Shown piece by piece: positions 11,191 to 63,000 of a stretch of DNA of 64,000 nt. The stretch spans positions 24,800,001 to 24,864,000 of the forward strand of contig JANJGN010000009.1 of assembly GCA_026770705.1 (NCBI GenBank), written 5' to 3'. The first letter of the stretch is position 1; each line of letters opens with the position of its first letter. The stretch comes from Isurus oxyrinchus (Eukaryota). The position numbers and the translations under genes are program-made. Below the pieces are notes generated by a model, which did not search any database, was not told the DNA's origin, and worked only from the letters and a program-made list of their open reading frames with translations.

Positions 11191-11580
11191 TCAATACCCA
11201 TTCTCAATAAATATCGGTCCAACTCCCTTTTAAATACAGGCACAGGAGAACATTTGACCATACAGCTTAGAGTCTGTGAAATTGGTACCTGTATCTGCTA
11301 GTCTTAGCTTACTGTCCGACTTAAACAATCTTCTTACTTCAACTTTACCTGCTTCTTTCACTATGTCCTCCCTCAGTATTTTTTCCAATGAAAGTGAAGG
11401 TAGTTGTTTAAACCTTCCTTCATAATTTCACCGCACCAAAGCCTGAAATCATGGTTCAGCCTAAACCCAGTCTTACTTATTATATAAAAACAAAAAACTG
11501 CGGATGCTGGAAATCCAAAACAAAAACAGAATTACCTGGAAAAACTCAGCAGGTCTGGCAGCATCGGCGGAGAAGAAAAG

Positions 11581-11619
11581 AGTTGACGTTTCGAGTCCTC
11601 ATGACCCTTCGACAGAACT
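11581..11619 (-). ncRNA. Minimal type I hammerhead-like ribozyme (variant core CUGUCGA)
   Basis: AGTT-CTGTCGA-A-GGGTC-ATGAG-GACTC-GAAA-CGTC-AACT: stem I AGTT/AACT, stem II GGGTC/GACTC, loopless self-complementary stem III as known for PLE hammerheads. Confidence 0.7.
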
Positions 11620-12222
11620 AGGCGAATCCCAGGAAGGGGTGAAATATAAGCTGGTTTAAGGTGGTGGGGGGGTGGGGTTGGGTGGGGGGAGAGAAGTGGA
11701 GGGGGGTGGTGTGGTTGTAGGCAAAAGCAGTGATAGAAGCAGATCATCAAAAGATGTCACAGACAGCAGAACAAAAGAACACATAGGTGTCGAAGTTGGT
11801 GACATTATCTAAACGAATGTGCTAATTAAGAATGGATGGCAGGGCACTCAAGGTATAGCTCTAGTGGGGGTGGGGGGAGCATAAAAGATTTAAAAATATT
11901 TTAAAATAATGGAAATAGGTGGGAAAAAGAAAAATCTATATAATTTATTGGAAAAAAAAACAAAAGGAAGGGGGAAGTAACAGAAAGGGGGTGGGGACGG
12001 AGGGGGGAGGTCAAGACCTAAAGTTGTTGAATTCAATATTCAGTCTGGAAGGCTGTAAAGTGCCTAGTCGGAAGATGAGGTGTTGTTCCTCCAGTTTGCG
12101 TTGGGCTTCACTGGAACAATGCAGCAAGCCAAGGACAGACATGTGGGCAAGAGAGCAATCCCAGCCCCAGCCGTGTATTCACTATACCCCTTGACCTTCC
12201 CCTCTCCGATGCTGAACGTTCA

Positions 12223-14366
12223 GTGCTCAGCAAAGGACTTAGTTTCATACCCCTATGCCCTCACCTTAATGAATTTCAGGCTCGGCACGATGCTGAACTC
12301 TTCTTCCGCTGTCTTCGTCTCTGGGCTCACTTCTTTGGGCAGGAGTCCTCTCCCCGTTCAACGGATCCTTTTACCCACCTCCAATATTCTCCCTCCACCT
12401 GGACCCCTCCCTCTGGATTCTTACCATCTCTTGATCTTTTCATTGAGAACTGTCGGCGCGACATTAGTCGTCTCAATTTCTCTGCTCCTCTCACCCATTC
12501 TAATCTCTCTCTTGCTGAACTTACTGCACTCCATTCTCTCAGGTCCAACCCTGACATCATCATCAAATCCGCTGACAAGGGTGGTGCTGTTGTTGTCTGG
12601 CGCACTGACCTCTACCTCGCGGAGGCTGAGTGTCAACTCACAGACACTTCCTCCTACCTCTCGCTGGACCATGACCCCACCAATGAACATCAAGCCATTG
12701 TTTCCAGGACTGTCACTGACCTCATCTCCTCTGGGGATCTTCCTCCCACAGCTTCCAACCTCATAGTCACCCAACCTCGGACAGCCCGCTTCTACCTCCT
12801 ACCCAAAATCCACAAATAGAACCGTCCCGGTAGACCGATCATGTCAGCTTGCTCCTGCCCCACAGAACTCATTTCTCGTTATCTTGACTCCCTTCTCTCT
12901 CCCCTTGTCCAGTCCCTCCCCACCTACATCCGCGATTCCTCTGACACCTTACGTCACATCAACAATTTCCAGTTTCCTGGCCCCAACTGCTTCCTCTTCA
13001 CCATGGATGTCCAATCCCTCTACACCTCCATCCCCCACCAGATGGTCTGAGGGCCCTTAGCTTCTTCTTCGAACAGAGGCCCGAACAACCCCCATCCACC
13101 ACTACTCTCCTCCGTCTGGCTGAACTTGTTCTCACAGTGAACAATTTCTCCTTCAACTCCTCTCACTTCCTCCAAATAAAAGGTGTGGCTATGGGTACCC
13201 ACATGGGCCCCAGCTATGCCTGTCTCTTTATGGGGTATGTGGAACATTCCTTGTTCCAGTCCTACTCCAGCCCCCTTCCACAACTCTTTCTCCGGTACAT
13301 CGATGATTACGTCGGTGCTGCTTCATGCTCTCGTCAGGACTTAGAAAAATTTATTAATTTTGCTTCCAATCTCCACCCCTCCATCATTTTCACGTGGTCC
13401 ATCTCTGACACTTCCCTGCCCTTCCTTGACCTCGCTGTCTCAATCTCTGGTGATAGACTGTCCACCAATATCCATTACAAACTTATCGACTCCCACAGCT
13501 ACCTTGACTACAGCTCCTCACACCCCGCTTCCTGTAAGGACTCCATCCCATTCTCTCAGTTCCTTTGCCTCCGTCGCATCTGTTCTGATGATGCTACCTT
13601 CAAAAACAGTTCCTCTGATATGTCCTCCTTCTTCCTTAACCGAGGTTTTCCACCCACGGTGGTTGACAGGGCCCTCAACCGTGTCCGGCCCATCTCCCGT
13701 GCATCCGCCCTCACGCCTTCTCCTCCCTCCCAGAAACATGATAGGCTCCCCCTTGTCCTCACTTATCACCCCACCAGCCTCCGCATTCAAAGGATCATCC
13801 TCCGCCATTTCCGCCAACTCCAGCATGATGCCACTACCAAATACATCTTCCCTTCACCCCCACTGTCAGCATTCCGTAGGGATCATTCCCTCTGGGACAC
13901 CCTGGTCCACTCCTCCATCACCCCCTACTCCCCAACCCTCACCTATGGCATCACCCCATGCCCACGCAAAAGATGTAACACCTGCCCCTTCACTTCCACT
14001 TTCCTCACCGTCCAAGGGCCCAAACACTCCTTTCAAGTGAAGCAACATTTCACTTGCATTTCCCCCAACTTAGTCTACTGCATTCGTTGCTCCCAATGCG
14101 GTCTCCTCTACATTGGAGAGACCAAACGTAAACTGGGCGACCACTTTGCAGAACACCTGCAGTCTGTCCGCAAGAATGACCCAAACCTCCCTGTCGCTTG
14201 CCATTTCAACACTCCACCCTGCTCTCTTGCCCACATGTCTGTCCTTGGCTTGCTGCATTGTTCCAGTGAAGCCCAACGCAAACTGGAGGAACAACACCTC
14301 ATCTTCCGACTAGGCACTTTACAGCCTTCCGGACTGAATATTGAATTCAACAACTTTATGTCTTGA
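12223..14366 (+). pseudogene. Disrupted PLE reverse transcriptase / GIY-YIG endonuclease ORF
   Basis: Three ORF pieces (12223-12819, 12841-13050, 13137-14366). RT motifs LFTMDVQSLYTSIP, KGVAMGTHMGPSYA, FLRYIDD; Cys linker CPRKRCNTC; GIY-YIG region NLVYCIRC..LLYIGETKR..EH..GLN. Stop at 12817 and a frameshift near 13045. Confidence 0.92.
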
Positions 14367-14755
14367 CCTCCCCCCTCCATCCCCACCCCCTTTCTGTTTC
14401 TTCCCCCTTCCTTTTGTTTTTTTCCAATAAATTATATAGATTTTTCTTTTTCCCACCTATTCCCATTATTTTAAAATATTTTTAAATATTTTATGCTCCC
14501 CCCACCCCCACTAGAGCTATACCTTGAGTGCCCTGCCATCCATTCTTAATTAGCACATTCGTTTAGATAATATCACCAACTTCGACACCTATGTGTTCTT
14601 TTGTTCTGCTGTCTGTGACATCTTTTGATGATATGCTTCTATCACTGCTTTTGCCTACAACCATACCACCCCCATCCACTTCTCTCCACCCACCCAACCC
14701 CACCCCCCCACCACCTTAAACCAGCTTATATTTTACCCCTTCCTGGGATTCGCCT

Positions 14756-14794
14756 AGTTCTGTCGAAGGGTCATGAGGACTCGAAACATCAACT
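14756..14794 (+). ncRNA. Minimal hammerhead-like motif (CUGUCGA; stem III G>A)
   Basis: agtt ctgtcga a gggtc atgag gactc gaaa catc aact; inverted counterpart of 11581-11619. Confidence 0.6.
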
Positions 14795-15866
14795 CTTTTC
14801 TTCTCCGCCGATGCTGCCAGACCTGCTGAGTTTTTCCAGGTAATTCTGTTTTTGTTTTTCTCACTTATTATATGCTCTGTGAGGCACAATGACCCAAACT
14901 GCATAGCATTTTTCAAGATTGTCCTCACCATAGACCTATATAATGCCAGTATAAATTGTCCTGACTTGCAATCCAATACCTTCCAGATGCATTCCATATT
15001 TGATTTGCCTGATTCATAAGCACCTTACATTGACGAACTTCTTCAGGGTATGATCAATGATCACTGGCTTACTCAGAATCTCTGAACAGGCCACCAAACG
15101 TTAACCGCCAGAACCTAGCCTATTTTGAATTTATAAAACCGATCAACAAGAACCATTGGAAATATTATGGTGCAGTTTTACTTCTTTTTAAACAAACATT
15201 TCTCTACTTTACCAAAACATACACTTACCTTAACCATCTCCAATTGTCCATTATGACCTTGCCATAGGTTTGAATGAAAAGGAAGTCTCCATTCGGTACA
15301 TCAACAGCACTTCCTGCTTTTCTCAGGCTTGTTCCAAACACAGGATATATCTCTTGCTTGAACTTTCGACAAAGCTCAGACTGAACACAAACCAGTTAAT
15401 TCCATCTAGACTCCCCAGAGTGAGCTTGCGAGTTGCCAAGCAGATGAGGTAAGCATATTTGGCAAACTGGAACCAGTGCTGAATTTGTTAGTCGTCAGTG
15501 TTTTGGTAATGATTGAGGTGCCATAATCCACAATGAGCTGCAGGTGCTTCAAGGGACTTGCCATAATATTACTGGAATAATAAGTTCAATTTGTCTTTAT
15601 TTCCCTCTTTTTTTGAAAACATATATAAAGAAAAAAATAACATCAAAGTTGTTATGTTCCTATTGTCATAAAACTATCTTTACACTTGTTCATGGTTTGG
15701 CACAGATTTTTGCAAGTAGTGCATGTGTTATTGTACATTATCACCGGTGAAGAAGCTCTATTGCTCTTAAGAGCATAGAGCCTGCAGTCTTACTACGATA
15801 TTTAATTTTTCAAGCTAAACAACAATTACATCTCTTCTAATTCCAGCACTTCCATTTTTTGTTTGA

Positions 15867-22847: not shown

Positions 22848-23635
22848 ATAAAAGTAAAATACTGCGGATGCTGGGATCCGAAATGAAAACAGAAAATGCT
22901 GGCAACATCTGTGCAGAGAGAAACAGAGAAAAGACACGATAAATAAAGAAGGGAGAATATATCAAAATGGACAGAGTTCCTGGTCTCAAGTTGTTGAACT
23001 CAATGTTAAGTCCAGAAGGCTGTAAAATGCCTAATCAGAAGATGAGATGCTGTTCCTCTAGTATGCGTTGGAATTCACTTGAACATTGTAGAAGGCCGAA
23101 GACAGAAATGTGAGTATGAGAGCAAGATGGTGAATTGAAATGGCAAGCGATAGGAAAGTCGAACTGAGCAAGGATGTTCCACAAAGCAGTCACCCAGCCT
23201 ACATTTAGATTTCTTTCCCCAATCCCATCCCCTCACCTCCCCTTCTCCCTGTCCATAAGTCCTAGCCTTTGCCTTGTTCCCATGTTTTGCTTTCAGAAAG
23301 CATGTCCCCTGTTCTGCTTTCAACATATTCTACCAACTGATGTTAGGCTACTATTAACACCTGCTTTAGTCTTTAACACCATCAATACTACTCTCTTTGT
23401 CTTGTGTCCATGACATCTTTGTCATTTTATCCCTCCTGACCTCTAACCTATCCATGATCTTCTATTTTTCTCCACCCATTCCACCCCCACGCTTGTCAAC
23501 AGCATAAAACCCATCACATCTCTACTTCGCTTCAGCTCTGAAAAAGAGTCGTATGGACTTGAAATGTTAACTTTCTTTCTCTCTCCACAGATGCTGCCAG
23601 ACCTGCTGAGTTTTGTCAGCAATTTCTGCTTTTAC
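22848..23635. mobile_element. Degenerate fold-back Penelope-like element
   Basis: Left part is a minus-oriented PLE 3' end with tail (actgcggatgctgg) and GIY-YIG C-terminal remnant. Right part is a plus-oriented 3' end with a mutated hammerhead at 23534-23572 (ctgaaaa a gagtc gtatg gactt gaaa tgtt aact). Confidence 0.8.
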
Positions 23636-37833: not shown

Positions 37834-38524
37834 TAAAAGCAAAAAACTGCGGATGCTGGAAATCCAAAACAAAAATAAAAATACCTGGAAAAACTCAGCA
37901 GGTCTGGCAGCATCTGCGGAGACGAACACAGTTAACGTTTCGAGTCCGTATGACTCTTCAACAGAACTAAGTGAAAATAGAAAAGAGGTGAAATATAAGC
38001 TTGTTTAAGGTGGGTGGGTGGGGGTGGGGGGGGGGGCGGGGTAGAGCTGGATAGAGGGCCAGTGATAGGTGGAGATAGCCAAAAGATGTCAGACAAAAGG
38101 ACAAAGAGGTGTTGAAGGTGGTAATATTATCTAAGGAATGTGCTAATTAAGGGTAGAAAGTAGGACAAGCAAGGTACAGATAGCCCTAGTGGGGGTGGCC
38201 TATTTCGATTCCTTCACCCCACTCCACGCCCACTGTATCTTGCTTGTCCTGCTTTCTACCCTTAATTAGCATATTCCTCAGATAATATTACCACCTTCAA
38301 CACCTCTTTGTCCTTTTGTCTATGACATCTTTTGGCTATCTCCACCTATCACTGGCCCTCTATCCAGCTCTACCCCCCCTCCTCCCTTAAACCAGCTTAT
38401 ATTTCACCTGTTTTCTATTTTTACTTAGTTCTGTTGAAGAGTCTTACGGACTTGAAACGTTAATTGAGTTCCTCACTGCAGGTGCTGCCAGACCTGCTGA
38501 GTTTTTCCAGGTATTTTTATTTTT
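37834..38524. mobile_element. Non-coding fold-back Penelope-derived element (~690 bp)
   Basis: Two inverted PLE 3'-end arms. Hammerhead motifs at 37930-37968 (-) and 38427-38465 (+), both CUGUUGA. TSD gtcatgtgtga at 37823-37833 and 38525-38535. Confidence 0.9.
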
Positions 38525-39059
38525 GTCATGTGTGAGACCTCACTGACTGGAGAGGGCCTCAAATTTTACCTTATGTGTAAAGGAATATGATGGCAGTTAA
38601 CTTTATCAACTAGGTCTGGAGTTGTGCAACTTTATCTTACAGCTTTCCCAATGGCTCAGTGGTTTTGCTCAGTAAGTAGCTGATTGTCCAGGGTTAGGTT
38701 CAGTCCCTAGACTATGCCAAGGTACCACTTCTCAGTTGGGTGGATTTAAGAGCATTACAATTGATCTAGAATTGCTGATGCTGATTGGATGTATTCCAGG
38801 AGTTATCACATGATTTCTTGCCTCCATCCTCTTCACCACACCCCCCTGCCATTGGTCACCTGGCATGTCCACCCTCATGATGCACCACCTTCCTATTCTA
38901 TTATAAAGTAAAATGGCTCTTGTGCATTATTCAACTTATTAGTTGAATCTTGACTGTCAAGCAAACAGCCTTTTTACCCCCCAGCATCTCCAATATTAAA
39001 CAAAAGCGTTAAAAGAAAATGGAAAAAAATTCCATGCAAAGTAATTGCTGAAGACTAGT

Positions 39060-39705
39060 GGGTAGGTACAATAAACAATTTAAAAGGCCAGTGGAATATT
39101 AGTCTTTATCTTGAAAAAATTGAAATACAAATTGTGCTACTGTTGTAAAAGAAGTTTAGGTTTACCACATGTGGATTAGTGCATTCCGTTCTGAATGCTG
39201 TTCCTCAGGAAAGTCCTGAAGGGATTGCAGTATAGATTTACCAGCATAATATCAGGGCTAATAGGGTTAAATTATGAGAACAGGTTGCATAGACTAGGCT
39301 TGTATTCCCTTGAGTTTAGAAGATTAAGCTGTGAACTAATTAAGTGTTTAAGATGATTAAAGAAGTTGATAGGGCAGAGACATAGACATCGTTTCCTCTA
39401 GTGGAGGTGTCCAGAACAAAGCAACATAATTTTAAATTAAGAACTAGGCCATTACGGGGTGAAGTCAGGAAGTACTTCTTCACAAAGGTTAGTGTAAATC
39501 TGGAACTCTCCCTGAAAAAGATGAAATTGAGCCTTGGAGGATCAATTGAATATTTCAAAACAGATTGATAGAAGATTTTTCTCAGGTAAAGGTTTTTGGG
39601 GACATGGAACCAATACTTGTAAATGGACTTAAGATGCAGCTCAAGTCATGATCTAACTGAATAGCAGAACAGGGGGCTGGATGGCCAGCCCCCATTCCTA
39701 TTTTT
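39060..39705 (+). mobile_element. CR1-like LINE 3' fragment (old)
   Basis: ..aaattatgagaacaggttgcatagactaggcttgtattcccttgagtttagaagatta.. (NYE.RL.RLGLYSLEFRRL) followed by a CR1-type 3' end. Confidence 0.8.
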
Positions 39706-41364
39706 TTTCTTCTGCCATGGTGTGAAGTTCTTTATGAACAGTGTAAATGGCCACATCTTCATGCTTGCCTCCCAAATCTGTGCCCATCTTTCCCAGAACT
39801 CCATATTTCAATTCCTCCAATAAGATTCCTGCCTCTGCCAGAGTACCAAAATAGCTCTTATAAAAACCCCAACATCATATCAGTGACAATGGTAAACTTT
39901 CCCTCCACATCCTTCTCAACCTGCCTGCAGCCTTTGACACAGCCAACTATCCTCCTCCAATGCCTCTCCTGTACCATCCCGTTGGTTGGGACCTCTCTCC
40001 CTGGTTCCATTCTTATTTGTCTAATCATATCCAGATTACCACTCACAATGGCTTCTCTTCCTCCATTGCACCTATACCCTTGGTATTCCCCTGAGGATCT
40101 TTCCCTGGCCCTCTCCTATTTTTCATCTACATGTTGCCCTCAGCAACATTATCTAAAAGCACATTAGTTTTCATATGTACACTGATGATACCCAGCTCTT
40201 CCTTACCCTCACCTTTCTCGACTCCACCACTTCTGTTAAATTATCAGACTGTTATCCAGCATAGATGATTAGAAAGTTCCTCCAATTACATATTGGGAAG
40301 GCTAAAGCTATTGTTTTCAGTTCCCACCCCAAACACTATTCCCTAGCAACTGACTCCATCCCTCCCTCTGGCAAAATTGTTTGATTAAAATAGTTTGTTT
40401 GCAACCTTGGTCTCACATTTGACCCCAAGATTAACTTCCAATCATATATTAACATCACTGCTTCATGGAGGAAGACACAAATAACTTCCCAGAAATACTA
40501 GGGAATCGAGGGTCTAGTGAGAAGGAGGAATTGAAAGAAATTAGTATTACTAAAAAAAGTGCTGGGGAAATTAATGGGACTGAAAGCTGATAAACCCCCA
40601 GGGCCGGATAATCTACATCCCAGGGTACTAAAGGAGGTGGCCATGGAAATTGTGGATGCATTGGTTATCATCTTCCAAAATTCTGTAGATTCTGGAACAG
40701 TCCCTGCAGATTGGAGGGTGGCAAATGTAACGGCACAATTTGAAAAAGGAGGAAAGGAAAAAATGGGAATTACAGGCTGGTTAGCTTAACATCAGTGGTA
40801 GAGGAAATGCTAGAGTCTATTATAAAGGATGTGATAAAGGACACTTCGAAAATGTCAGCTGAATTAGAGAAAGTCAACATGGATTTATGAAAAGGAAATC
40901 AAAAAATGAGTTTTTTGAAGACTTACCTAGCAGTATAGATAAAGGAGAGCCAGTGGATGTGGAGTATTTAGATTTTCAGAAAGCTTTTAATAAAGTCCCA
41001 TATTAGGGGTTAGTGAGTAAAATTAAAGCACATGGCATTGGGGGTAATATATTGGCATGGATTGAGAATTGGTTAGCCGACAGGAAACAGAGTAGGAATA
41101 AATGGGTCCTTTTCAGAATGACAGGCAGTGACTAGTGGGGTACCGCAGGGATCAGTGCTTGGGCCCCAGCTATTCACAATATATATCAATGATTTGGATG
41201 AGGGAATCAAATGTAATATTTCTAAGTTTGCTATTGACACAAAACTAGATGGGAATGTGAATGGTGAGGAGGATGGTAAGAGGCTTCAAGGCATTTAGAC
41301 AAGTTAAGTGGTGGGCAAATACATGGCAAATGCAGTATAACATGGATAAGTGTGAAGTTATCCA

Positions 41365-43451
41365 ACACAAACATAAAATTTGCTGGAAAAACTCAGCAGG
41401 TCTGACAGCATCTGTGGAGACGAAGACAGAGTTAACGTTTCAAGTCCGAGACTCTTCATCAGAACTGAAGAGAAATAGAAATGTGGTGAAATATAAACTG
41501 TTTAAGGACAGGACAGTGATAGGTGGAGGCAAAGGAGAGATTGCCAAAGATGTCATTAACAAAAGGTCAAGGGGTGTTGATGGTGGTGATTTTAGCTAAA
41601 GGATGTGCTAATGGTGACATTAAGGGTAGAAAGCAGGATGAGCAACTAACAGGTGGTCCTAGTGGGGGTGGGGTGGAGGGAAGGGATTGAAATAGGCTAT
41701 AAGGTAGAGATAAAACAATGGACGGTAATAAATTATAAAAATAATAATAGAAATAGGTGGGAAAAGAAAAATATATATATAAAATTAATAATTATTAGAA
41801 AAAAGGTGATCAAAAAGGGGGTGGGGATGGAGGAGAGAGTTCATGATCCAAAGTTGTTGAACTCAATATTAAGTGCAGAAGGCTGTAAAGTGCCTAGTCA
41901 GTAGATGAGGTGCTGTTCCTCCAGTTTGCATTGAGCTTCACTGGAACATTGCAGCAGGCCAAGGATAGACACGTGGGCACGAGAGCAGGGTGGTGTGTTG
42001 AAATGGCAAGCGACAGGGAGGTCTGGGTCATGCTTGCGGGTAGACCGAAGGTGTTCCGTAAAGCGGTCACCCAGGCTGCGTTTGGTCTCTCCAGTGTAGA
42101 GGAAACCACATTGGGAGCAGCAACTGCAGTAGACTAAATTGAGGGAAGTGCAAGTGAAATGCTGCTTCACTTGAAAGGAGTGTTTGGGCCCTTGGACAGT
42201 GAGGAGGGGGTAAGTAAAGAGGCAAGTTGCACCTCCTGCAGTTGCATGGGAAGATGCCGTGGGAGGGGGCTGAGTTGTAGGGGGTGATGGAGGAGTGGAC
42301 CAGGGTGTCCCGGAGGGAGCGATCCCTACGGAATGCCGATGGGGGGTGAAGGGAAGATGTGTTTGGTGGTGGCATCATGCTGGAGTTGGCGGAAATGGCA
42401 GAGGATGATCCTTTGAATGCGACAGCTGGTGGGGTGATAAGAGAGGACAAGGGGGACCCTATCATATTTTTGGGAGGGAGAGGAAGGTGTGAGGGTGGGT
42501 GCACGGGAGATGGGCCGGACATGGTCGAGGGCCCTGTCAACCACTGTGGGTAGAAAACTTCAGCTAAGGAAGAAGGAAAACATGTCAGAGGAACTGTTTT
42601 TGAAAGTGGCACCATCAGAACAGATGCAATGGAGACGAAGGAACTGAGAGAATGGGATGGAGTCCTTATAGGAAGCAGGGTGTGAGGAGCTGTAGTCGAG
42701 GTAGCTGTGGGAGTCAGTGGGCTTGTAATGAATATTGGTGGATAGTCTATCACCAGAAATTGAGAGGTCAAGGAAGGGAAGGGAAGTGTCAGAGATGGAC
42801 CATGTGAAAGTGATAGAGGGGTGGAAATTGGAAGCAAAAGTAATAAATTTTTCCAGGTCCAGACGAGGGCATGAAGCGGCATCAAGGCAGTCATCGATGT
42901 ACCGGAGAAAGAGTTGTGGAAGGGGGCCAGAGTAGGACCAGAACGAGGAATGTTCCACATACCCCAGAAAGAGACAGGCATAACTGGGGCCCATGCGGGT
43001 ACCCATGGCCAAATCTTTTATTTGGAGGAAGTGAGACGAGTTTAAGGAGAAATTGTTCAGTGAGAGAACAAGTTCAACCAGACGGAGGAGAGTGGTGGTG
43101 GATGGGGATTGTTCAGGCCTCTGTCAAAGGAAGAAGCGGAGTGCCCTCAGACCATCCCGGTGGGGGATGGAGCTGTAGAGGGATTGGGCATCCATGGTGA
43201 AGAGGAAGCGGTTGGGGCCAGGGAACTGGAAATTGTTGATATGTTGTAGGCCATCAGAGGAATCGCGGATGTTGGTGGGAAGAGACTGGACTAGGGGAGA
43301 GAGAATGGAGTCAAGAAATGAAGAAATGAGTTCTGTGAGGCAGGAACAGGCTGACACAATTGGTCTGCCAGGATTGTGGATCCTGTTTGTGGATTTTGGG
43401 TAGGAGATAGAAGCGGGCCTTCCGAGGTTGGGAGACTATGAGGTTGGAAGC
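41365..43451 (-). mobile_element. Penelope-like retroelement, 5'-truncated, disrupted RT + GIY-YIG
   Basis: ORF pieces AMGTRMGPSYACLF, FLRYIDD, NLVYC..FLYTGETKR; exact 14-bp TSD tgtgaagttatcca at 41351-41364 and 43452-43465. Confidence 0.93.
41430..41466 (-). ncRNA. Minimal type I hammerhead ribozyme with canonical core
   Basis: AGTT-CTGATGA-A-GAGTC-TCG-GACTT-GAAA-CGTT-AACT; predicted cleavage after GUU; palindromic AACGTT stem III. Confidence 0.75.
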
Positions 43452-44649
43452 TGTGAAGTTATCCACTTTGGTAGGAAAAACAGAATGGCAGAGTATTATT
43501 TAAATGGTGATTGATTGGGAAATGTTGATGTACAAAGGGACCTGGGTGTCCTTGTACTCCAATCATTGAAATCAAGCACACAGGTGCAGCAAGCAGTTAG
43601 AAGGCAAATGGCATGTTGGACTTCATTGCAAGAGGACCTGAGTACAGGAGCAAGGATGTCTTACTGCAGCTGTACAGGACCTTGGTGAGACCACACCTAG
43701 GGTATTATGTGCAGTTTTGATCTCCTTACCTAAGAAATGATGTGCTTGCCATTGAGGGAGTGCAGTGAAAGTTCACTAGATTGGTTTCTGGGATGGCAAG
43801 ATTGTTGTATGAGGAGAGATTGGGCTGACTGGGCCTGTTTAGAAGAATGAGAGGGGATCTCATTGAAACATATAAATGTCTGACAGGGCTGGACAGACTG
43901 GATGCAGGGATGGTGTTTCCTCTGGCTGGGGGGGCGCTAAAACAAGGGGTCACAACCTCAGGATATGGAGTAGGCCATTTAGAACTGAGATGAGGAGAAA
44001 CTTCTTCACTCAGAGGGCAGTGAACCTGTGGAATTCTCTACCATAGGGGGCTGTGAGGCCTAGTTACTGAATATATTTAAGAAGGAAATAGATAGATTTC
44101 TGGACTCTAAAAGCGTCAAGGGGTATGGGGAGAGAGTGGGAGTACAGCATTGAGATAGAGGATCAGCCATGATCATAATGAATGGTAGAGCAGGCTCAAA
44201 GGCCAAATGACCTACTCCTGCTTCCATTTTCTATGTTTCTATGCTAAGATAGCCGATTTCCACCTCTGAGGCATCACAAGACTTTGCCCCTGCCTCAATT
44301 CATCTGCTGCTGAACCCCTCATTTATGCTTTCATTACCTCTAGACTCAACTGTTCCAATATACTCCTGCTTGGTCTCTCACATTTTACCCTCCATAAACT
44401 TGAGGTCATCTAAACTTTGCTGTCCCTGTCTTAACTCACACCAAGTTCCATTCACCTATCACCCCTGTGTTCGCTGACCTACATTGGCTCTCAGTCAAAC
44501 AGCGTCTTGATTTTAAAATTCTCATCCATGTTTTCAAATCCCTCCATGGCCTCACCCTCCCTATCTGTGCAATTTCCTCCAGCCCCACAACTCTCCGGGA
44601 TATCTGTGTTCCTTTAATTCTGGCCTCTTGTGCACCCCCAATTTTAATT

Positions 44650-56760: not shown

Positions 56761-57726
56761 AGAATTGAGTCACTCATATGCACCTCCTAACAGCTGGTAC
56801 ACCATGACATTGGCAGAAGGCCAAGAGGTGTCACCTTCCTGTCCTTCACACCCTTGGAAAGCATGTGGCTCAGAGAGACTTGAAGGGGAGAAATTAGCGG
56901 GTGGCATATAATGGAAATACATATATATTTTAAGAACAGAGAAGTGCCGACATTTTGTTCACCAAAATGAGAGTTATATTATGTTTTAATTAGTAATAGT
57001 GTGTTGTCATGTAAAATGTAGATTAAGCTGGATGTCTGAAATGATGAAGCTAGATGTCATATCCCAATCTAGCAAGACAATAAAGATTTTTTTGCTATTC
57101 AATTGCATTTGTTTAAAAAAAAAAGTGAATAAATGTACCTCTGTGTGTAGTGTTGAGCCATGCAGACAAGGAAGCTTGCAGGTTCAATTTCAGTCTTTGC
57201 TAAGTTAGATTGCCTCAGCGATGAGAACTACAATGCAGCTCAGTGCTCTTGAGGCAAGGGGGGGGGGGGGGAATCAGCTGGGAATCCCACTCCTATTATT
57301 AACTGATTACACCAGATGATAACTACATGTTTGGTTGTTGAAGTAGAACAGAGGATGCAAATGTCATGTACTGCATAGTCAAACAGAATGCAATCTTCAT
57401 GTATTAAGGTCACCCATGATGTATGGGCACACTTGGCTATACCATGCTGCCATCTTCAGAAGAAGAGAGAGGGAAACGAATGATGGTTGCGATACCCCAA
57501 AATAGTAGAAAAACCTGCTGACACTCAAGGCCAAAATACCCAATTGAGAAGGATAAGGGAGAGCAGCAGGCACCATAGGGGCATAATCCACCAAGAAGTC
57601 AATTTCTAAAGGAGGAGGAGAGGAAGGAAAGAGACAAAACTGATTAAGAATTAATTCAAAGATATACACAATACCGTGTTGTCTATGCAATGCCCTGCCA
57701 TCCCAAAATAATTTATATGTGGCTGA

Positions 57727-57826
57727 AACAAAAACAGAATTACCTGGAAAAGCTCAGCAGGTCTGGCAGCATCGGCGGAGAAGAAAAGAGTTGACGTTTC
57801 GAGTCCTCATGACCCTTCCACAGAAC
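57727..57826 (-). mobile_element. ~100-bp hammerhead-containing PLE mini-element
   Basis: Minus strand GTTCTGTGGAAGGGTCATGAGGACTCGAAACGTCAACT...GTAATTCTGTTTTTGTT; TSD atttatatgtggctga at 57711-57726 and 57830-57845. Confidence 0.9.
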
Positions 57827-59069
57827 AATATTTATATGTGGCTGATCCTGATATAACATCATATGTTAAAACACATTCTATTCAATTTAACAGTTTCAAA
57901 ATTACATTTAAGGACACCTTTATGTATTCAGACAAAGTGCTCCTTTTTCTCTCCAGTTTGTTTCATCTTCCGTCTTTCCAAATTTACCAGTTGCAACCAA
58001 TGGCAATGCTGGTGTGAAACAGCCGGGCCTGCAAACGCAGAGCTCCCTTACAGCACTCCAACATGAGTCCACTACTTCCAATGTTTTTTAAATTGATCAT
58101 CCCCCTCCTAAGTGAGGTTACTGAATTAGAGCTAGCTGTGCACAATATTGCACTATAAGCTGACGTTCACTGGGGACTAAACTGAGTCGTCAACAGATGA
58201 AGACAGAGGTTTAATTCCATCTCTCTGAGGTAGATTCAAATCCAAGTTGCAGAAGCAAAGAATCAAGTGTTTTAATTACTAACCCACCAGACCACCCAGT
58301 TCCTCCTCCCACTTTCCATTTTTAAAAAAATGTCTAATTCACCAACCTACTGAGAAAATGAGTGCTTATTTAAAATTTCTAAGACAGTTTACTTCCTCCA
58401 TTTGGCTACAAAATTGAAAATTTGTCCATGGTTGAATTAAACAGACTGTTAATTACTATATCCTATCGTAAACACTTGACAGCTGTGAGCCATATATTAG
58501 TACACTAACAAAATCAAACAGATGTTTTAAAAGGTGCATTGCAGTGTTTAGAGGCTTGAGAGGCTGATCGCAGTTTTAGGATTAGGGCCACAGAAATCCC
58601 AAACTATTGCGCAAATAGAGCAGTAATGTTTATACAGAACAAGATTGAAAAAAACGATGGTGAAAGCTTGTGTTTTAAGTGAAAAAGCAATTCCCCAAAT
58701 TCCCGAAATGGAACATTTTCCATTTTAAATTATCTCTCACTCCTGAGGTAGATATAGCACAATCCACTATGGAGTAAAGCCCCTTTGCTTTGTCTCTAAA
58801 TTGCAACCTCAGAACAATCCTGCTACACCCAATTCCAACAACAGCAGTTCTGTTCACTCCATCCCTCCACCAACCACCAACCCCCCACCGCCCCTCCATA
58901 ACCCCGATGTGACTGCCAATTTAGTGCCAAGTAAGGGGCAATTGTGCATTGTAGGCCCTCACCTACCTGGCAACAGACTACCAATACTTAATAAACAGGA
59001 CCCTCCCAAACCAGCAGAGATAGACGACCTTCATTTCATCAGCCCTGGCTTGTTTCCAACCAAATTTTC

Positions 59070-59171
59070 GTTCTGTTGAAGGGTCATGAGGACTCGAAAC
59101 GTCAACTCTTTTCTTCTCCGCCGATGCTGCCAGACCTGATGAGTTTTTCCAGGTAATTCTGTTTTTGTTTT
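59070..59171 (+). mobile_element. ~100-bp hammerhead-containing PLE mini-element
   Basis: gttctgttgaagggtcatgaggactcgaaacgtcaact...gtaattctgtttttgtttt; TSD caaattttc at 59061-59069 and 59172-59180. Confidence 0.9.
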
Positions 59172-59524
59172 CAAATTTTCTTTTTTAGTACAAAAATAAA
59201 TAAAACTATTTTACTGTAAAGAACTCTTTAATAAAAGTAAATTATTTTGGAAATGTGCAGAGCAACCAGCATCTAACACTTCACATTACAGCATAGTTAG
59301 CATTACAGGTATGACCCAGCAACAGAAGTGAGGGGCATTTTGGGTACTTGTAGTACTGTAGTTGCAGTGGGCCAGCAACTGTATCATAAGGAGTTCAAAT
59401 CCCACCATAGCAAATTGTGTAAGTGAATATAATAGACCTGGTCTATATAAAAAAAACCTGTTGTTTGGAAACATCCAGCTCCCAAGGGAACTCATAAAAC
59501 ATTAACTAGCCTAACAAGTTATTC

Positions 59525-60081
59525 ACAACAAAAATACCTGGAAAAAATCAGCGGGTCTGACAGCATCTGTGGAGAGGAATACAGTTGACGTTTTGAGTCC
59601 GTAAGACCCTTCATCAGGACTAAGGAAATAGAGAAATGAGGTGAAATATAAGCTCGTAGAGGTGGGTGGGACAGGTAGAACTGGATAGAGGGCCAGTGAT
59701 AGGTGGAGGCAAAGAGAGATTGCCAAAGATGTCATAGACAAAAGGACAAAGGGGTGTTGACGGTGGTGATATTATCTAAGGAATGTGCTAATAGGGACAT
59801 TAAGGGAAGCAAGCAGGACAAGCTAGTGGCAGATGGCCCTAGTGGGGGTGGGTTGGGGGCAAGGGATTGAAATGGGCTAAAAGGTAGAGATAAAACAATA
59901 GATCAAAATAACTTTAAAAATAGGTGGGAAAAGAACATTTTTTTTAAATTATAGGAAAAAGGGGGATCGGAAAGGGGGTGGGGATGGAGGAGAGAGTTCA
60001 TGATCTGAAATTATTGAACTCAATATTACGTCTGGAAGGCTGTAAAGTGCCTAGTCGGAGGTTGAGGTGCTGCTCCTCCAG
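59525..60081 (-). mobile_element. PLE 3' fragment joined to a CR1 element
   Basis: GIY-YIG C-terminal codons and 3' region homologous to 41365-41925; hammerhead at 59583-59621 with CUGAUGA but GAAA changed to AAAA. Confidence 0.88.
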
Positions 60082-63000
60082 AGAAGAAATTCTTCCTCAT
60101 CTCTGTTTTAAATGGGTGACCCCTTACCCTGAGATTATGCCCTCTGGTCCTAGACTCTCCCACAAGGGGAAACAAACTCTCAGAATCTACCCTGTCAAGC
60201 TCTCTAAGAATCTTATATGGTTCAATAAGGTCACTTCTCATTCTTCTAAACTCCAATGAGTACAGGCCCAACCTACTCAACCTCTCCTCATAAGAAAATC
60301 CCTCCATCCCCGGGATCAACCTAGTGAACCTCCTCTGGACTGCCTCCAATGCCAATATATCTTCCCTAAGATAAGGGGACCAAAACTTTTCGCAGCATTT
60401 TCAGTGTGGTCTAACTAGTGCCTTGTATAGTTTTAGCAAGGCTTCCCTATTTTTATACTCCATTCCCTTTGAAATAAAGGCCAACATTCCATTTGCCTTA
60501 CCTATTACCTGTTGAACTTGTATGTCCGCTTTTTGGGGTTCAAGCACAAGGACTCCTAAATCCCACTGTGCTGTAGCCTTCTGTGGTCTTTCTCTATTTA
60601 AATAATATTCCTCTATTCTTCCTGCCAAAGTGCATAACCTCACATATTCCCACATTATATTCCATCTGCCACTTTTTTGCTGACTCACTAAACTGTCTAT
60701 GGACCTCTGTGGACTCCTTGTGTCATCCTCACCACTTGACTTCCCATTTATTTTTGTATCATCTACAAATTTGGCAATGGTACATTCACTTCCCTCATCT
60801 AAATCATTAATATGTATTGTAAGTAATTGAAACCTCAGCACTGATCACTGTGGCACTCCACTAAGTACAGGTTACCATCCTGAAAATGTCCCCCTTATCC
60901 AAAATCTGTCTTTTATTAGTTAGCCAATCCTCTATCCATGCTAAAATACGACCCTAACACCATGGGCACTTATCTTATTAAGCAGCCTTACATGCAGTAC
61001 CTTAGCGAACACCTTTTCGAAATCCAAATATATTACGTCTACTGGTTCCCCTTCATCTATCCTGCCAGCTATCTCCTCAAAGAATTCTAATAGATTTGTC
61101 AGGCATGATTTCCCCTTCATGAAGCCATGCTGACTCTGCTTGATTAGATTTGTAATTCTAAATGCTCTGCTATTACATCATTTATAATAGACTCCAACAT
61201 TTTCCCAACGACAGATGTTAAGCTAACTGGCCTTTAGTTACCTATTTTTTTGTCTCCCTCCCTTTATTAATAAGGGTGTTACACTGACAGTTTTCCAATC
61301 CTCTGGGACTTTTCCAGAATCTAAGGATTCTTGGAAGATTATTACCAGTACATCCACTATCTCTGTAGCAATTTCTTTTAATATCCTTGGATGCAACTCA
61401 TCAGTCCAAGGTCTTTAGCCTCATTAGGTTCCCTGGTACTTTTTCTCTAGTAATAGTTATTGTATTTATTTCCTCCCCCTCTTTTGCCTCTTGATTATTT
61501 AGTATTGGAATGTTATTAATGTCTTTAACCGTGAAGACTGAAGCAAAGTATTTATTCAACTCCTCTGCCATTTCCTGGTTCCCCATTATTATTATTTCCC
61601 TAGCCTCATTCTGTAAGGCGCCTTTGTTCACTCTTCCTTTTTATATATTTAAAGAAGCTCTTACTGTCTGTTTTTATATTACTTGCTTGTTCACCGTCAA
61701 AGTTTATTTTTTCCTTCTTTATTTATTTTTTGGCCATCTTTGTTGGTTTTTTAAAATTTTCCCAATCCTCTGGCTTAACATTAATCTTTGCCACATTGTA
61801 TGTCAATTCTTTAAATTTGACATTATCCTTAACTTCCTTAGTTAACTATGGCTGGTTCATCCCCTTCCTTGAATCCTTCTTCCTCATCGGGATATATCTT
61901 TGTTGCGAGTCATGAACTATTTTCTTAAATGTCTGCCATTGTTCATCAACCCCTTTTTCTGCTAAAGTCCTATCCCAGTCCACTCTAGTCAACTCTGTCC
62001 TCATTCCTTTGTGATTACCCTTATTTAAGTTTTGCACAGTTGTTTCCAACCCAAGTTTCTCACTCTTAAACTGAATGCTAAATTCTACCATATTATGGTC
62101 ACTGTTCCTTAGGGTATGTTTTACTCTGAGATCATTTATTAAAACTGCCTCATTACACATCACCAGATCCCAAATAGTCTGATCCCTGGCTGGATCCACA
62201 TCATATTGTTCAAGGAAACTGTCCCGAATACATTCTATGAATTCTTGCTCATGGCTACCGCTGCCAATTTGATTTTCCTAATCTACATGAAGATTAATGT
62301 CACCCATGAGTAATGTACTACCTTTTTTACATGCCCTCACTATCTCCTGATTTATTCTCTGTCCAACAGTTTAGCTGCTGTTTGGGGGCCTATAAACTAC
62401 TCCCACCAGTGTCTTCTTCCCCTTGTTATTCCTTAACTCCACCCATATGGATTGTACATTTTCCAATCCAATATCCTTTCTTGCTATCATACCTATTCCA
62501 TCTCGTACTAATAAAGCTACCCCATCACCCTTTCCCTCGTGCCTGTCCTTTCAAAAAGTCATATACCCCTGAATATTTAGTTCCCAGCTTTGAACTCCTT
62601 GTAACCGCGTCTAATGGCTATAAAATCATACTCTATTTGTGCCGTTAATTTATGTATTTTGTACCGAATACTATGTGCATTTAAGTAAAGACCATTAATT
62701 TTGTTTTTTTTAACCATTTTCTCCCCCTTTGACCCTATTTGTTGCTGGTTTTTTATGTTTGTACACTCTGTCCCTTCCTGTCACACTCTGGGTATCATTA
62801 CTGAAATAGCTGCCCTGCAAGGCTACCATATCCTTTTCCTTTGTAAGCCTACGTATACTCTCTCCAGAACCCTGCCGCCCCCTGATTAGTTTTAAGCCCT
62901 CTCTACAGCCCTAATTATTCAGTTTGCCAGGACACTGGTCCCAGCATGGTTCAAGTGAAGACTGTCCCACTGGAACAGCTCCCTTCTGCCCCAGTCCTGG

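Follow-up and report, generated by a model that had tools for sequence, protein, structure and literature searches.

Short hammerhead-bearing inserts in the Isurus oxyrinchus genome as probable copies of the 5' leader of a Penelope-like element

Truncated, tailed, and inverted ends of Penelope-like elements (PLEs), as well as dispersed minimal hammerheads, are already known (PMC4209133, PMC8557442, PMC3846280, PMC6765202). Accounts of endonuclease-bearing (EN+) PLEs describe insertion units made up of a pLTR, an optional tail of 30 to 40 bp, and an inverted 5' arm (PMC8557442, PMC3846280). PLE transcription starts have been located in the pLTR (PMC2377424, PMC8557442), and TATA plus Inr-like motifs have been reported (PMC3846280); the contrary case is the D. 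virilis Penelope promoter, which is internal and TATA-less (PMC2377424). An anole PLE protein was found to begin reverse transcription at two places inside the RNA, which lie just 3' of the hammerhead and delimit the tail; uncleaved RNA was the main substrate, and 5' truncation of the RNA shortened the product (PMC11167929). Dispersed minimal hammerheads have been described as "probably related to truncated PLEs," with a circular RNA model proposed for tandem ones.

We analyzed a window of 64,000 nucleotides from Isurus oxyrinchus (contig JANJGN010000009.1, positions 24,800,001 to 24,864,000) that carries two inserts of about 100 nt, here called minis, and followed their family through the genome. 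The family resembles the EN+ PLE insertion units of the Neptune/Nematis type (PMC8557442, PMC3846280) in parent architecture, 3' ends with or without a tail, inverted arms, variable target site duplications (TSDs), and partial tandems. In the available text of those papers 5' truncation is variable, whereas here about one-third of insertion events end in a single 17-nt stretch, and leader duplications also occur. The anole PLE belongs to a different clade but likewise has two tail-bounding starts of reverse transcription and a product length set by the RNA 5' end; in the shark family the ORF starts after the tail, the available text on the anole element describes no genomic leader-only inserts, and no reads ending at the hammerhead cut were found (PMC11167929). 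Like the known minimal PLE hammerheads, those examined here are of type I, have a palindromic stem III, and mostly occur as dispersed single motifs, but in the young subfamilies A6 is U; clustering of 5' ends and cut-site junctions are not described in the available portion of that literature. Metazoan non-LTR retrozymes are, like the minis, short, noncoding, PLE related, and equipped with a type I hammerhead, but they are described as tandem whole monomers with canonical hammerheads and circular RNA (PMC7229834; bioRxiv 10.64898/2026.07.22.740005). The minis are instead single or inverted, carry one motif each, and begin elsewhere than at the cut site. The literature covered (mostly main texts of open-access papers) yielded no account of leader-only run-off inserts or of cut-site junctions, and the leader duplications whose upstream piece ends at element positions 573 to 577 are new here. 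The minis are best read as a by-product that exposes the RNA start of the element and not as a new parasite.

The two inserts and their parent family

Element positions are counted on a natural copy at window positions 11484 to 12157 (minus strand), in which GTTCTG begins with G540. On this scale, the hammerhead is predicted to cut after C573, untailed copies have their 3' end at ∼641, and the tail reaches ∼674. Mini-insertion A (57727 to 57826, minus strand) spans element positions 540 to 639, comprising the leader with its hammerhead motif and ∼62 nt more, without tail and with a G547 variant. It is flanked by a 16-bp TSD (ATTTATATGTGGCTGA; copies at 57711 to 57726 and 57830 to 57845). Three extra bases (57827 to 57829, minus strand) separate the element start from the TSD and are either non-templated or part of a longer TSD of 19 to 20 bp with one indel. 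Mini-insertion B (59070 to 59171, plus strand) spans 540 to 641, again without tail, and has T547 and A609 variants and a 9-bp TSD (CAAATTTTC; copies at 59061 to 59069 and 59172 to 59180). The two differ at three positions (97% identity). An earlier, sequence-only reading of this stretch had taken A and B for separate inserts, each beginning at GTTCTG and each with a TSD of its own, of 16 and 9 bp; this was borne out, with the extra bases or longer TSD at A as the one refinement. It had also called their ends identical, which stands for the shared GTTCTG start but not beyond it: the 3' ends lie 1 to 2 nt apart, and the genome-wide peak of 5' ends is 17 nt wide.

The same reading had placed both minis in the subfamily of an 11.5-kb element. 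A and B are 97 to 98% identical across 100 nt to a parent-family copy at 11484 to 14858, but the size given is wrong, this being a 3.4-kb, 5'-truncated copy located at window position 11.5 kb. Its inverted arm (11484 to 12157, minus strand) holds the 3' untranslated region (UTR), the leader, and a 33-nt tail (11484 to 11516), and its direct arm (12158 to 14858, plus strand) holds a 5'-truncated, frameshifted RT/GIY-YIG ORF that ends near 14363, the 3' UTR, and the leader up to 641. A TATA-like TATATTT (14727 to 14733, plus strand) lies 30 nt upstream of G540 (14757), and an Inr-like CTAGTTC (plus strand) surrounds A539 (14756); both are putative promoter parts. In total, the window contains nine copies of the leader module, four of which are 97 to 98% alike.

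Elsewhere in the 5-Gb genome, many copies have a 926-codon open frame within 3.34-kb tandem units. As in EN+ PLEs, a single ORF combines an RT, with a YIDD motif, and an endonuclease of the GIY-YIG type at its C terminus (Pfam RVT_1, E = 1e-6; GIY-YIG, E = 9e-4; both just short of the curated cutoffs), and the pLTR derived from partial tandems, the 33-nt tail, and the inverted arms agree with EN+ architecture. A linker motif, CPSKRCNTC (CX4CxxC), stands at residue 792 before the endonuclease. Such a CX2-5CxxC linker marks the Neptune and Nematis clades (PMC8557442), and by this motif the parent family fits Neptune or Nematis. Because the 926-codon ORF is intact in dozens of copies (among the best 150 matches), the family has been active very recently. 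Exact-pattern searches of the genome gave 75,034 matches to a 49-mer (element positions 583 to 631) and 3,726 to a 33-mer unique to the pLTR-ORF junction.

The window also holds older subfamilies of this PLE family, at 37866 to 38526 (an inverted pair), 41364 to 44010, 59516 to 60081, and 23351 to 23633, some with canonical CUGAUGA cores. ORF fragments of another retroelement, with RT-like text, occur at ∼60080 to 61540 and 39270 to 41360; by resemblance, we take them to be of CR1/L2 type.

Distribution and origin of the 5' ends

To describe the ends, we used the first 100 genome matches of the 3'-side 49-mer (C1, 0 to 5 Mb), unselected for the 5' end. The 5' end fell at 531 to 547 in 38 of the 91 copies at risk (3.1% per nt), at 548 to 582 in 9 of 100 (0.27% per nt), and at 500 to 530 in 8 of 53 (0.53% per nt), which places the peak at 6 to 12 times the flanking rate; one x-drop end (L161) was shifted out of the peak by hand, and ends further upstream are unreliable in poly-C. 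By eye, 14 of the 38 peak copies were solo inserts (7 without tail, like A and B) and ∼24 were arms of inverted pairs, so that ∼32 independent events remain if each pair is counted once. Scaled to the whole genome, there would be ∼28,000 short arms, and solo minis would number ∼10,000, both lower bounds given the exact pattern. The 3' ends formed two classes, at ∼638 to 642 and ∼673, in agreement with the two anole RT start sites that bound the tail in vitro (PMC11167929). That the 5' ends would prove nonrandom had been proposed from the window, and the genomic 5' and 3' ends support it: they show a peak near GTTCTG and not a continuous spread, although the peak is broad and not confined to one base. 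The hammerhead cut was rejected as the source of the minis, as 1 of 100 terminal copies and 0 of 69 ORF-linked copies had their 5' end at 574.

The explanation we prefer, with a probability of roughly two in three, is that the minis are dead-end copies of the element's 5' leader, made by RT running off from an internal priming site to the RNA 5' end. The Penelope RT would be primed at the nicked target, begin inside the RNA at either of two tail sites of the upstream pLTR (641 or 674), and run off the 5' end of the transcript ∼100 or 135 nt later, the 5'-end peak then representing the Pol II start. Priming at the first tail of a transcript that starts in the pLTR would thus yield a 100- or 135-nt cDNA ending at the RNA start, much like a mini. 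Whether full-length or truncated, any copy that carries the promoter could serve as the source. Retroviral minus-strand strong-stop DNA is likewise a short cDNA, which spans the stretch between a priming site close to the 5' end and the start of the RNA, and it can jump. The run-off product would resemble it by analogy only, being target primed and integrated rather than extended, without tRNA primer or RNase H. A start site was among the causes suggested earlier for the 5' ends, and we consider the likeliest to be a defined end of the RNA at the base of hammerhead stem I.

The arrangement of the TATA-like box is consistent with this. TATATTT lies at −30/−31 in long copies of the YYA type (mostly T547) and at −33 in those of the TCAA type (mostly C547), and in the YYA type A539 falls within YYAGTT, presumably an Inr-like motif. 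In older subfamilies, a TATA-like box is retained at −27 to −33 by most long copies despite changed sequence in between (88 matches in 864 kb of unselected DNA, with a few long copies lacking a box match). BLAST edges at ∼540 in these old subfamilies were not taken as ends because the upstream sequence diverges between subfamilies. The 5' ends move with the box, the peak being displaced upstream in the subfamily with the box 3 nt more distant; this shift is qualified by the marker at 547 being only ∼90% pure and by the greater age of T547 copies (96.6 versus 98.8% identity). A non-A base preceded G540 in 2,248 of 21,834 T547 copies (mostly YYA; 10.3%) and 2,578 of 65,873 C547 copies (mostly TCAA; 3.9%). 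With true junctions at 22 of 30 and 19 of 20 inspected loci, respectively, a junction exactly at 540 with a non-A base in front occurs in ∼7.6% (T547) and ∼3.7% (C547) of copies reaching 540. TCAA copies reaching 539 (all C547), 536, and 531 numbered 63,295, 48,238, and 40,803, and the loss between 536 and 531 was 15%, compared with a background of ∼4.5% in long copies (5/111). G was commoner than C before G540, both among 200 listed matches counted by hand (65 versus 28) and among checked junctions (12 versus 5), a weak hint of a cap-derived G.

Copies joined to the ORF start behaved differently. Among 69 of them (four x-drop ends corrected by hand), 5 of ∼48 at risk stopped in the peak, compared with 38 of 91 terminal copies (Fisher P = 1e-4). 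Since ORF-linked copies mostly pass the peak, most long copies used templates without an end there, and because full-length copies so seldom stop at the start, the run-off explanation has to assume a second template class. Longer and tandem copies would mostly derive from multi-unit transcripts or from hammerhead-cut unit-length RNA, the latter read as a circle or by end-to-end jumping. The same observation could be turned the other way, in that ORF-linked copies may pass merely because they are preselected for processive runs. This would suit the view that copies primed at the 3' end are truncated at a hot spot, by RT stalling at the hammerhead or by fold-back of the cDNA; a protein-bound or dimeric hammerhead, or short palindromes (CTAG, TGATCA) at 535 to 540, might be responsible. 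The ∼24 peak copies that are inverted-pair arms have palindromic centers, and inverted 5' arms are known in PLEs (PMC8557442, PMC3846280). However, solo TSD-flanked minis end at the same place, leader duplications restart there, and the ends shift with TATA spacing. An RT moving 3' to 5' would also meet the 3' strand of stem I (577) before its 5' strand, and no stable fold was found at the boundary that could block it (z, +2.0), the stable hairpin lying at 590 to 660, over the tail. We therefore consider a hot spot unlikely.

The minis had been proposed to be a minimal retrozyme- or SINE-like parasite. Taken as a rival explanation, this would be a self-propagating, nonautonomous short element whose own transcripts, started at an internal promoter, are copied back in trans. 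Their very high copy number would fit, the 590-660 hairpin is kept in tailed minis, and there are precedents in the internal promoter of D. virilis Penelope (PMC2377424), the nonautonomous PLE derivative Chlamys MRC1 (PMC8557442), and retrozymes proposed as PLE derivatives (bioRxiv 10.64898/2026.07.22.740005). Against this, the TATA-like box lies outside the span of the minis and is absent from them, and their ends follow the upstream type of the long parents. In a small sample of 97 short and 158 long copies, no variant above 6% in 540 to 641 was private to the short ones, as an own lineage would have it, and short and long copies were equal in identity, type by type. Arrays of whole monomers were not seen among the solo and inverted-pair minis, and the sole short tandems were rare 35- to 40-nt half-ribozyme leader repeats. 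A mini-only G547 lineage was rejected, as G547 also occurs in one long copy (L375). The proposal of a parasite was thus not supported, and we give it little credence.

Splicing, another cause suggested for the 5' end, is highly improbable and already largely refuted. An AG does precede TTCTG in long copies (AG/TTCTG), and helix I is where the intron of D. virilis ends (PMC4209133). Use of this AG as an acceptor would fix the end at 541 behind a shared exon, and neither was seen: minis as a rule retain G540, often together with A539 and further bases as far as 531, and short copies have no common upstream exon. In the commonest subfamily the sequence is TCAAG, without a pyrimidine tract, and no GT-AG joint into 541 was present in contigs of 8 runs, a weak test since their RNA nature was guessed. 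A donor-like CAG/GTAATT was found downstream of the hammerhead instead (59150 to 59158, plus strand; element position 623) and, judged from its sequence, is a putative 5' end of a pLTR intron. Candidate acceptors lie near the ATG and ∼100 nt into the ORF (L210:1980-2175); the same contigs contained no GT-AG joint out of the site at 623, and they gave no signal of transcript starts that could be used. Both priming sites would fall inside this putative intron, which would explain its retention. With no shared upstream exon, splice joint, or mini-specific variant, run-off of the leader is more likely than a spliced or self-propagating SINE.

Several further features of the junctions were recorded. 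At five loci (L299, L306, L312, L391, and L392), the first 5 to 10 nt are recopied at the 5' junction (e.g., GTTCT before GTTCTG), in a manner like slippage at a template end. Inverted pairs (e.g., L015, L267, L355, L173, and L170) usually have one tailed and one untailed arm of closely matched length, and the arms often differ at 547 (C/T, C/G, or T/G), which hints at two RNA templates head to head and not at one folded-back cDNA. Two core-region pieces, GGACTCGAAA and CAACTCTTT, recur in the 33 nt that precede the hammerhead in the TCAA subfamily (L210:1860-1900), perhaps as relics of an old jump that gave rise to it.

Hammerhead motif and leader duplications

The minimal type I hammerhead motif of A lies at 57789 to 57826 (minus strand; element positions 540 to 577), with a predicted cut between 57793 and 57792; its stem I lacks A539, and A6 is U. 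That of B lies at 59070 to 59107 (plus strand), with stem I GTT/AAC, stem II at 551-555/561-565, and a self-complementary ACGT as stem III. Stems I and II, GAAA, a palindromic stem III, and a GUC cut site are all present, as in minimal PLE hammerheads. By the GUC rule, we take the cut to follow C (59103 in B; element position 573). This general rule was combined with the minimal hammerhead layout in PMC4209133. The core in the family of A and B reads CUGU(C/U/G)GA; with U at A6, the young subfamilies depart from the canonical CUGANGA, and older subfamilies have CUGAUGA or CUGAAGA. An Rfam scan of the window gave no hammerhead match at E ≤ 1. Activity of a natural A6C hammerhead variant is described as low or slow but detectable (PMC3088659).

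A single locus that suggested a jump from the leader start onto 573 prompted a genome-wide pattern search for the core followed by a new leader start within 14 nt. It gave 68 matches, of which 30 were fetched as loci and 20 more as regions. We excluded 17 within-array repeats or apparent segmental duplicates (three not fetched), 5 chance flank matches, and 6 old-subfamily matches without a junction (3 inspected), leaving 40 loci with 41 junction types. The statistics that follow rest on hand-read counts in a window of 569 to 583, a simulated uniform null, and bins picked after viewing the data. The upstream piece ended at 573 to 577 in 32 of the 41 junctions, compared with 17.3 expected (P = 3e-6). 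Taking the right-most possible position, landings fell at 573 in 7, 574 in 8 (most sharing the leader's own first A), 575 in 3, 576 in 11, and 577 in 3; the remainder fell at 578 in 3, 571 to 572 in 4, and 581 to 583 in 2, with none at 569, 570, 579, 580, or 582. The counts exceeded expectation at 573 to 574 (15 versus 7.0; P = 0.002), at 573 alone (7 versus 3.3; P = 0.045), and at 576 (11 versus 3.4; P = 4e-4). One further junction, outside the 569-583 window, lands at 592. The upstream piece itself begins at 531 to 551 in 36 of 40 loci, and a long upstream piece with its end at 572 to 574 was seen at two loci and also at L055. Several loci consist of 3 to 8 units of 35 to 40 nt, some with alternation of two sequence variants, which suggests two template RNAs. 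Among L371 to L419 (e.g., L395, L406, L410, and L377), runs of 35- to 40-nt units end at 573 or 576 before a normal mini.

Within the run-off explanation, RT would on rare occasions jump from the RNA 5' end onto another leader piece of 35 to 40 nt. The simplest reading is that it jumps to a free 3' end, that of the hammerhead 5' product (start to C573), and the duplications may then preserve, as fossils in the DNA, both cleavage by the ribozyme and jumps between templates. Several features count against this reading: the 576 mode coincides with the closing pair of stem I and not with the cut site, the core has U at A6 and a natural A6C variant is slow to cleave, the 5' ends show no peak at 574, and 0 of 158 long copies had the indel scars at 573/574 that sloppy end-to-end jumps should leave. 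Promoter-proximal RNAs of 35 to 45 nt, or a restart in second-strand synthesis, could give similar duplications. In contigs of the 8 runs, back-joints from 573 to 526 (X6 and X15) and from 576 to 539 (X3, X6, and X15) match the genomic modes but may be transcribed genomic copies, and we excluded them from the support.

A broader reading, to which we give about one chance in three, is that the genome preserves a fossil record of the Penelope cycle, in which minis in their tens of thousands mark the transcription start and the rare duplications show RT jumping from the RNA 5' end onto 3' ends left by hammerhead cleavage at GUC573 and onto the paired end of stem I at 576. If true, PLE ribozyme cutting would have its first in vivo trace here. 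The templates of full-length and tandem copies would then be unit-length RNA cut by the hammerhead and read either end to end or as a circle. This would explain how an RT with its start 100 nt from the 5' end can copy a 3.3-kb element. The family supplies coordinates for tests: the RNA would start at 533 to 541, priming would occur at 641 and 674, and jumps would land at 573 and 576. For annotators, what looks like a 100-nt "SINE" present in tens of thousands of copies can be a Penelope by-product.

A different kind of joint was seen at L241, L248, L235, L251, and L328, where a 5' part of the ORF ending at ∼810 to 830 is joined to a new leader or to a piece of the 3' UTR. These joints may mark another RNA end or another site of priming, ∼140 nt beyond the tail and close to an acceptor-like pyrimidine tract.
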